Program-made: the position numbers and the translations under genes
Shown here: positions 1 to 462 of the stretch, piece by piece
How the letters are laid out: every line of letters starts with the position of its first letter
How positions within the stretch are numbered: position 1 is the stretch's first letter
The notes under the pieces: generated by a model
Seen by the model: only the letters and a program-made list of their open reading frames with translations
Told to the model about the DNA's origin: nothing
Database searches by the model: none
DNA from: Escherichia coli
Lineage (GTDB): Bacteria; Pseudomonadota; Gammaproteobacteria; Enterobacterales; Enterobacteriaceae
Direction: 5' to 3' (one strand)
DNA: 462 bases
Assembly (NCBI RefSeq): GCF_003334385.1
Contig: NZ_QOWN01000179.1

Positions 1-16
1 TATTTTCCGAATGCAT
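1..16 (-). CDS. Possible 5-prime end of a leftward-transcribed gene (only the first 5 codons, M-H-S-E-N, are in the window); product unknown
   Basis: Minus-strand ATG (plus-strand CAT at 14..16) is preceded by a perfect AGGAGG Shine-Dalgarno (plus-strand CCTCCT 22..27) with a 5-nt spacer. The open frame runs off the left edge. Too little coding sequence to assess further. Confidence 0.3.
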
Positions 17-21
17 AATGA

Positions 22-27
22 CCTCCT
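22..27 (-). promoter_or_regulatory. Shine-Dalgarno / ribosome-binding site (AGGAGG) for the putative minus-strand start at 16..14
   Basis: Perfect AGGAGG on the minus strand, 5 nt upstream of ATG. The spacer is at the short end of the usual range. Confidence 0.3.
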
Positions 28-46
28 CTGGAATATCCCACCAATG

Positions 47-64
47 CTATAGTGAGTATATAAA
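47..64 (-). promoter_or_regulatory. Sequence resembling a single-subunit (T7/SP6-class) phage RNA polymerase promoter core; function speculative
   Basis: Minus strand reads TTTATATACTCACTATAG (plus 64..47). ACTCACTATAG matches positions -10 to +1 of the T7 class III consensus TAATACGACTCACTATAG exactly, and CACTATAG is the core shared by T7/SP6/K11-type promoters; the upstream block is AT-rich as in those promoters. Positions -11/-12 differ from T7 (T,A instead of G,C). It sits ~31 nt upstream of the SD-ATG on the same strand. Could be chance. Confidence 0.15.
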
Positions 65-79
65 GGTCATACCATCTAC

Positions 80-265
80 ATGTTCTTCGGCAACGATCAT
101 GGAGGCGAGCGCGGAGCTCTGCTGTACGGACTAATCGGGAGCTGTCGGTTGAACGGTATCGATCCAGAAGCGTATCTGCGCCATATCCTGAGCGTACTGC
201 CGGAATGGCCCTCCAACCGTGTTGACGAACTGCTGCCATGGAACGTAGTTTTCACCGATAAATAA
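80..265 (+). pseudogene. IS66-family transposase (TnpC-type DDE transposase), C-terminal fragment only; 3-prime remnant of a gene normally ~500 codons
   Basis: ORF 80..265 translates to MFFGNDHGGERGALLYGLIGSCRLNGIDPEAYLRHILSVLPEWPSNRVDELLPWNVVFTDK. The pattern LF-x-x-x-x-GGER-x-A-x-x-Y-x-LI-x-x-x-(K/R)-LNG-x-DP-x-AYL-x-x-(I/V)L-...-P-x-NR-(V/I)-x-ELLPWN is what I recognise from memory as the conserved C-terminal tail of IS66-family transposases (no search run). The frame is open back to 56 but closed by in-frame TAG (50..52) and TGA (53..55), so the N-terminal ~85% of the protein is absent in this frame. Stop TAA at 263..265. The ATG at 80 is probably an internal Met, not a real start. Confidence 0.8.
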
Positions 266-295
266 GTGTCAATACGGCGCTCTGTTGACGCTTAC
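266..295 (+). repeat. Candidate right terminal inverted repeat (IRR) of the IS66-family element
   Basis: Reverse complement of 266..295 is GTAAGCGTCAACAGAGCGCCGTATTGACAC. It begins with GTAAGCGT, identical to 386..393 on the + strand, and aligns imperfectly with 386..415 beyond that (shared ACAG after a 2-bp indel, shared CCGT further in). IR length is not determinable from this window. Confidence 0.4.
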
Positions 296-296
296 C

Positions 297-389
297 GATA
301 AATATCAGTTCACCTATGACGATGAAAAAATGCTGTCGCTGGCAAAAGAGATGAAAAGCGTGGTTGACAACACATCGAAATATCCGTAA
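297..389 (+). CDS. Candidate 3-prime end of an ORF in the spacer between the two IS-like termini (DKYQFTYDDEKMLSLAKEMKSVVDNTSKYP-stop); product unknown, possibly the tail of an IS-interrupted host gene
   Basis: One + frame is open across the whole 90-bp spacer and terminates at TAA 387..389, which lies inside the GTAAGCG motif. Codon choices (CTG, GAA, AAA, GCA) look like enterobacterial coding sequence, and the overlapping minus-strand ORF has the F/L/I-rich look of an antisense frame. An open frame of this length is not statistically significant alone. Confidence 0.15.
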   Translation, partial: DKYQFTYDDEKMLSLAKEMKSVVDNTSKYP

Positions 390-415
390 GCGTACAGCCT
401 GAACCGTCTGGTCAG
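386..415 (+). repeat. Candidate left terminal inverted repeat (IRL) of a second IS66-like element extending rightward off the window
   Basis: GTAAGCGTACAGCCTGAACCGTCTGGTCAG starts with the same 8-mer as the reverse complement of the putative IRR at 288..295. Orientation is that expected for a left end with the element body to the right. No coding evidence is visible in the remaining 70 bp, so this rests on the terminal motif alone. Confidence 0.25.
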
Positions 416-462
416 AATCTGACGAATTAGACAAAGTGGTGTCCACCAAATAAGTAGTGGGA

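Follow-up and report, generated by a model that had tools for sequence, protein, structure and literature searches.

A 90-bp hsdR segment between two IS66-family elements in an Escherichia coli island

The window analyzed here, a stretch of 462 nucleotides of Escherichia coli DNA, includes 90 bp (positions 296..385) that are identical, in the native reading frame, to the interior of the type I restriction gene hsdR and that are bounded on each side by an end of an IS66-family element. These 90 bp are very probably a non-functional relic of hsdR that was left between the two elements by IS insertions and subsequent deletion or recombination.

Layout of the window and origin of the 90-bp segment

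The window is a mosaic of four pieces, which were assigned using the RefSeq annotation of the identical stretch in SCU-104, an inverted-repeat search and a comparison with EC2, where this locus is free of ISEc45 and has complete copies of both IS66-family elements. The first piece (1..76/77, minus strand) is the left end of ISEc45, a member of the IS110 family; its transposase gene, annotated in SCU-104 (L001 6883..8016), starts with the ATG at 16..14 on the minus strand, and the boundary with the target, placed by comparison with EC2, carries a one-base (T) ambiguity at 76/77. The other three pieces lie on the plus strand. The left IS66-family element, which is IS682-like, is represented by its last 219 bp (77..295), comprising a 3′ fragment of tnpC (77..265; ORF 80..265, stop codon TAA at 263..265), annotated as a "transposase domain-containing protein" in SCU-104 and intact in EC2, and the inverted repeat IRR (272..295); the inverted repeat I1 detected in SCU-104 pairs L001 4313-4337 with 8272-8296 (88% complementary). 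The IRR ends with CGCTTAC at 289..295, rather than at 290..296, and accordingly the DNA that does not belong to either element spans 296..385. The remainder of the window (386..462) is the IRL (GTAAGCGTACAGCC…) and leader of a second, ISEc8-like, IS66-family element, the tnpA gene of which starts 16 bp past the window end.

When positions 297..385 were used as the query against 5,426 complete E. coli genomes, matches were found in 1,078, nearly all of them under genes annotated as "type I restriction endonuclease subunit R"; the parent hsdR, of 1084 codons, is carried by about 1,000 of these genomes. The 90 bp are identical at 90 of 90 positions, in the native frame, to L002 6000..6089, inside the coding sequence 2989..6243, and likewise to codons 1005-1034 of the genes for WP_047659047.1 and WP_000058875.1. 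Given that (6001-2989)/3 = 1004, codon 1005 begins at position 297, and the frame is the one initially assigned: the start chosen there, 297, coincides with the first complete native codon (GAT, Asp1005), preceded by the last base of codon 1004, and the segment runs through codon 1034, the third base of which is supplied by the second IS. The exact segment is contained in the uninterrupted, 1084-codon hsdR genes of TBE6 and KOr019, where hsdR closes an hsdM-hsdS-hsdR operon adjoining lutCBA.

In the parent protein, residues 1005-1034 fall inside the C-terminal T1RH-like_C domain (Pfam PF11867, residues 748-1080), and the nuclease (HSDR_N) and SWI2/SNF2 motor domains occupy residues 5-527; no HSDR_N or SWI2/SNF2 motor sequence was found at the double-IS locus in SCU-104 and EC2, the two genomes examined in this respect. 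The parent shares the HSDR_N, SWI2/SNF2 motor, domain-3 and T1RH-like_C architecture and the hsdM-hsdS-hsdR operon with the HsdR of EcoR124I (PDB 2W00). It is, however, a distant rather than a close relative of that protein (E about 1e-24, with the best stretch over the motor region), and the only relatives of the parent with solved structures are such distant EcoR124I-type HsdR chains. With 30 of the 1084 residues left in the window, the segment is, as judged from its sequence, a relic and not a functional member of the HsdR family.

The frame in question is one of six ORFs of at least 20 aa in the window. As delimited mechanically, it is a chimeric IS/hsdR/IS ORF of 34 codons (285..389, plus strand) with a TTG start inside the IRR and a TAA stop, and it translates to LTLTDKYQFTYDDEKMLSLAKEMKSVVDNTSKYP followed by the stop. 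The initial annotation located this stop, TAA at 387..389, inside an IS terminus, and GTAAGCG indeed occupies 386..392. At the base level, the native …TATCC/TGACTGG… is replaced in the window by …TATCC/GTAAGCG…, with the switch at 385/386; because the ISEc8-like terminus is divided as G/TAA/GCG and the insertion is in codon phase 2, the G completes a proline codon (CCT to CCG) and the TAA closes the frame. In TBE6 and KOr019, the intact gene reads …SKYP/DWSKRDD… at the breakpoint and continues for 50 codons beyond 385 (native protein …FFDILAHMRDKYQFTYDDEKMLSLAKEMKSVVDNTSKYPDWSKRDDIKAKL…NHMS and stop; continuation …SKYPDWSKRDDIKAKL…HMS and stop). This excludes the TAA as the native stop codon; it was supplied by the IS66-family terminus, as had been proposed. 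The two findings that would have spoken against this proposal, a native stop at 387..389 and the absence of the segment from uninterrupted genes, are contradicted by the alleles examined.

By itself, the ORF means little: in one of the three possible insertion phases, any GTAA terminus puts a TAA in frame, and the remaining two frames meet stops at 400 and 428 regardless. It rises above chance because its 90 bases match the interior of an annotated hsdR, 90 of 90 and in frame. The initial annotation also pointed to the extension of the frame leftward across the IRR as a sign of host coding sequence. This extension is real (the frame is open from 249), but the DNA concerned is the tnpC tail and the IRR and is no evidence of host coding. 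The term "premature stop" carries no functional meaning here, since the locus has neither the promoter and start codon of hsdR nor its first 1004 codons.

The flanking elements and the history of the locus

Elements of the IS66 family are characterized by inverted repeats of 20-30 bp that start with GTAAGCG and by 8-bp direct repeats (PMC11946415). Both flanking elements have the appropriate termini (CGCTTAC at 289..295 and GTAAGCG at 386..392), with IRL/IRR pairs in both complete elements, and in EC2 both complete copies encode tnpA, tnpB and tnpC, the DDE transposase, according to the RefSeq annotation. The left element, 2536 bp in EC2, shares 95.5% identity with an NCTC9113 copy that has a transposase annotated as "IS66-like element IS682 family"; the right element, 2442 bp in EC2, is 99.2% identical to an annotated "ISEc8 family" element over the first 760 bp and 92.5% identical over the remainder. 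The two elements are in direct orientation around the spacer and are about 65-68% identical to each other, that is, they are different IS species. In terminal inverted repeats, gene content and length, both are thus like ISEc8 and IS682. They differ from the family in that neither copy at the double-IS locus retains an 8-bp target-site duplication: the flanks of the left element are GATACATG and CGATAAAT, and those of the complete right element in EC2 are AAATATCC and CCTTCTGT. The IS682-family copy in NCTC9113, which served as a positive control, has a clean 8-bp duplication, GCTCATTT, on both sides; given that this relative duplicates 8 bp, the missing duplications are attributable to later rearrangement of the flanks and not to a different kind of element. 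In SCU-104, the elements have decayed further, with the left tnpC split by ISEc45 and the right element deprived of tnpC by an additional deletion (it breaks off immediately past tnpB, where it adjoins a DUF987/cbeA/cbtA toxin-antitoxin cluster, L001 9203..9256), whereas in EC2 and others the ISEc8-like element is kept complete.

The early reading of the spacer as a short island of host coding sequence between two insertions thus stands, inasmuch as an hsdR segment has an IS66-family end on each side. One correction concerns the insertions themselves: with mismatched 8-bp flanks, neither of them is now a simple one. The most plausible scenario involves two transpositions into hsdR, that of an IS682-like element at the boundary of codons 1004 and 1005 and that of an ISEc8-like element 90 bp further downstream, where it split codon 1034 behind its second base. 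IS-mediated deletions or homologous recombination between IS copies would then have removed the 5′ 3 kb of hsdR upstream of the first element and, downstream of the second, the 3′ 154 bp of hsdR together with neighboring genes. That the outer parts of hsdR were removed after insertion, by deletion or recombination, is indicated by the mismatched 8-bp flanks.

The present surroundings are compatible with such losses. The region to the left of the IS682-like element contains a further transposase fragment, beyond which are the nan genes, and the feature tables of SCU-104 and EC2 contain no hsdR, hsdS or hsdM on that side. To the right of the ISEc8-like element, EC2 is 91.7% identical to M217, with the match beginning at position 10935 of the latter. 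In M217, the genes mcrC and mcrB, two zinc-ribbon genes and a Gp2-like gene come after a remnant of hsdR whose 3′ end is the same; compared with this order, about 4.8 kb is absent from EC2, namely the 3′-terminal 154 bp of hsdR, mcrCB and a portion of a zinc-ribbon gene.

An intermediate was sought with a chimeric query that joined the right end of the IS682-like element to hsdR up to its native stop. In 23 genomes, the match to this query takes in the terminal 60 bp of the IS end and the whole 244-bp hsdR part; the IRR/CGATAAAT junction is identical, and hsdR continues unbroken across the position equivalent to 385/386 to its own stop. The next gene is lutC, which also comes after hsdR where hsdMSR is intact. 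These genomes thus have the left insertion but not the right one. The opposite state, an ISEc8-like insertion alone with the upstream part of hsdR intact, was not found in any genome. Neither of the reciprocal junctions, ISEc8-IRR + AAATATCC + downstream hsdR and upstream hsdR + CGATAAAT + IS682-IRL, is present among the 5,426 genomes, and accordingly it is the canonical termini, not target duplications, from which we infer both transpositions. The sole full-coverage match for the combination of hsdR, CGATAAAT and IS682-IRL, in NCTC9113, was rejected as a separate insertion downstream of an intact hsdR with a duplication of its own. Matches H17-H21, which align with window positions 1..310, were also discarded as potential sharers of the left junction: the flank in KSC64 differs (CATTCATTCAGTT), and the match is an extension of the alignment only.

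Between the window and the intermediates, the 60 bp of the IS end show five differences, next to 90 bp of hsdR that are identical. A single ancestral left insertion fits these differences only if the IS copies later exchanged sequence. Copies of IS66-family elements are mosaic, as illustrated by the KSC64 copy, with 88.5% identity over 2.3 kb and 99.1% over the last 219 bp, and the five differences are attributed to such exchange. The alternative is that the left junction arose more than once, CGATAAAT being a preferred IS66-family target within a hot spot. One junction with two variants of the IS end would be accounted for in this way, and IS66-family insertions do recur in the neighborhood of hsdR: in addition to the two elements described here, these are a solo 64-bp IRL relic and the NCTC9113 copy. 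The 9-mer CGATAAATA, which occurs at 296..304 as the hsdR target beside the IS, is also found inside the IS end at 257..265, in the tnpC stop region. This repeat is probably a coincidence, given a rough estimate of about 0.4 such repeats by chance in 462 bp, and the other IS66-family insertions in this region are at unrelated targets (GCTCATTT and AAATATCC). Furthermore, the mosaic structure of the KSC64 copy and of the right element means that exchange after a single insertion is sufficient to explain the differences. Repeated insertion at this site appears unlikely, although not negligibly so; if it did occur, it would imply target selectivity in the IS66 family, the elements of which are generally considered to show little of it, and repeated IS-driven knock-out of a defense gene.

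The solo 64-bp relic of an IS682-like left end (L002 and L004, 6381..6444; L007, 7442..7505) is located approximately 138 bp past the stop codon of hsdR, including in strains whose hsdMSR is intact, and the DNA past its tip varies between genomes, being either lutC or mcrC, which suggests that the tip is an old IS-bounded recombination point. In NCTC9113 (L012 4491..7025), a complete IS682-family element with the duplication GCTCATTT lies between intact hsdR and lutC, and this is a further, independent IS66-family hit in this neighborhood.

Distribution and genomic context

The full window is present in 4 genomes and its ISEc45-free version in 12 more, so that the double-IS locus is found in 16 of the complete genomes searched, with 99.7-100% conservation; no copy of the full structure was detected among the PLSDB plasmids. 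All five copies of the double-IS locus that were inspected reside in one island context, with the nan genes on one side and zinc-ribbon, Gp2 and hha genes on the other (replaced in SCU-104 by the further deletion). The possibility that the 90 bp are a passenger inside a composite IS66-IS66 unit, mobile as one piece, in which case the location would be uninformative on a local hsdR, is raised by the direct orientation of the two elements and by the different context, beside lutCBA, of intact hsdMSR in TBE6 and KOr019. This explanation is nevertheless highly improbable: the elements belong to different IS species, with identity of about 65-68%, the outer flanks lack an 8-bp duplication, all five inspected copies share the same context, and the right flank matches the genes downstream of hsdR-mcrCB in M217, in agreement with local decay of hsdR.

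This hsdR has been cut at several independent points and is found in at least three genomic contexts. In strain S87, the same allele persists as a different remnant, the 3′ 210 bp (L011 3001..3210), between yjiA and symE, in the classical immigration control region.

The ISEc45 insertion at the left edge of the window interrupts the IS66-family tnpC at 76/77, between …GAATT and ACATG…. A 96-bp query spanning this ISEc45/tnpC junction is covered over at least 80% of its length in 740 of the 5,426 complete E. coli genomes, with as many as 8 sites per genome, located on both chromosomes and plasmids, and with 89.6-100% identity. The presence of the junction in diverged IS66-family copies in 740 genomes indicates that ISEc45 hits the same site repeatedly. 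Elements of the IS110 family are site-specific, and repeated hits at the same site are expected.

The open reading frame and the meaning of the relic

The ORF at 285..389 is a chimeric frame and a pseudogene relic, not a gene, and it does nothing. The notion that it is a real small gene for a chimeric micro-protein, expressed by read-out transcription from the left IS, can be practically dismissed: the frame is open for 46 codons (249..386), with a possible TTG start, and the locus is 99.7-100% conserved in 16 genomes, but the frame contains no ATG, its TTG is part of the IRR and has no Shine-Dalgarno-like sequence upstream, a scan of the window reveals no sigma-70-like promoter, no CDS is annotated at this position in four RefSeq records (SCU-104, EC2, UPEC-245U and S1-KEN-03-A), and the conservation does not exceed that of the flanking IS DNA and is therefore uninformative on selection. 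Thus, none of the features by which an expressed small ORF would be recognized, namely a start with a ribosome-binding site, a promoter, annotation, and conservation beyond that of the flanks, is found here. The same scan detected no promoter-like or terminator-like site in the window, and a search of the window against Rfam with a permissive threshold produced no match. Nor is the ORF an extension of TnpC, given that its frame differs from that of tnpC (80..265). On the minus strand, an ORF of 65 aa (252..449) was considered and taken as a chance ORF; it spans the IS ends and antisense hsdR.

The segment closely resembles other IS-disrupted pseudogene relics in E. coli islands: it is a fragment without a start, has canonical IS termini and a frame closed by an IS, and has lost the target duplications by rearrangement. 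Like such islands, the one that contains the window is crowded with elements of the IS66, IS110, IS3, IS30 and IS21 families. There is no difference of substance from these relics, although this one is unusually short, at 90 bp, and its intermediate survives elsewhere.

For annotation, the 90 bp are to be read as an hsdR pseudogene fragment and neither as a gene nor as intergenic DNA. This is a known kind of genome scar, the biology of which is routine and carries little weight beyond annotation. The relic probably testifies to the complete disappearance of a type I restriction system from the island through the activity of IS66-family elements, and thanks to the surviving intermediate, by which the order of events can be partly reconstructed, it provides a tidy example of the IS-driven decay of a defense locus.
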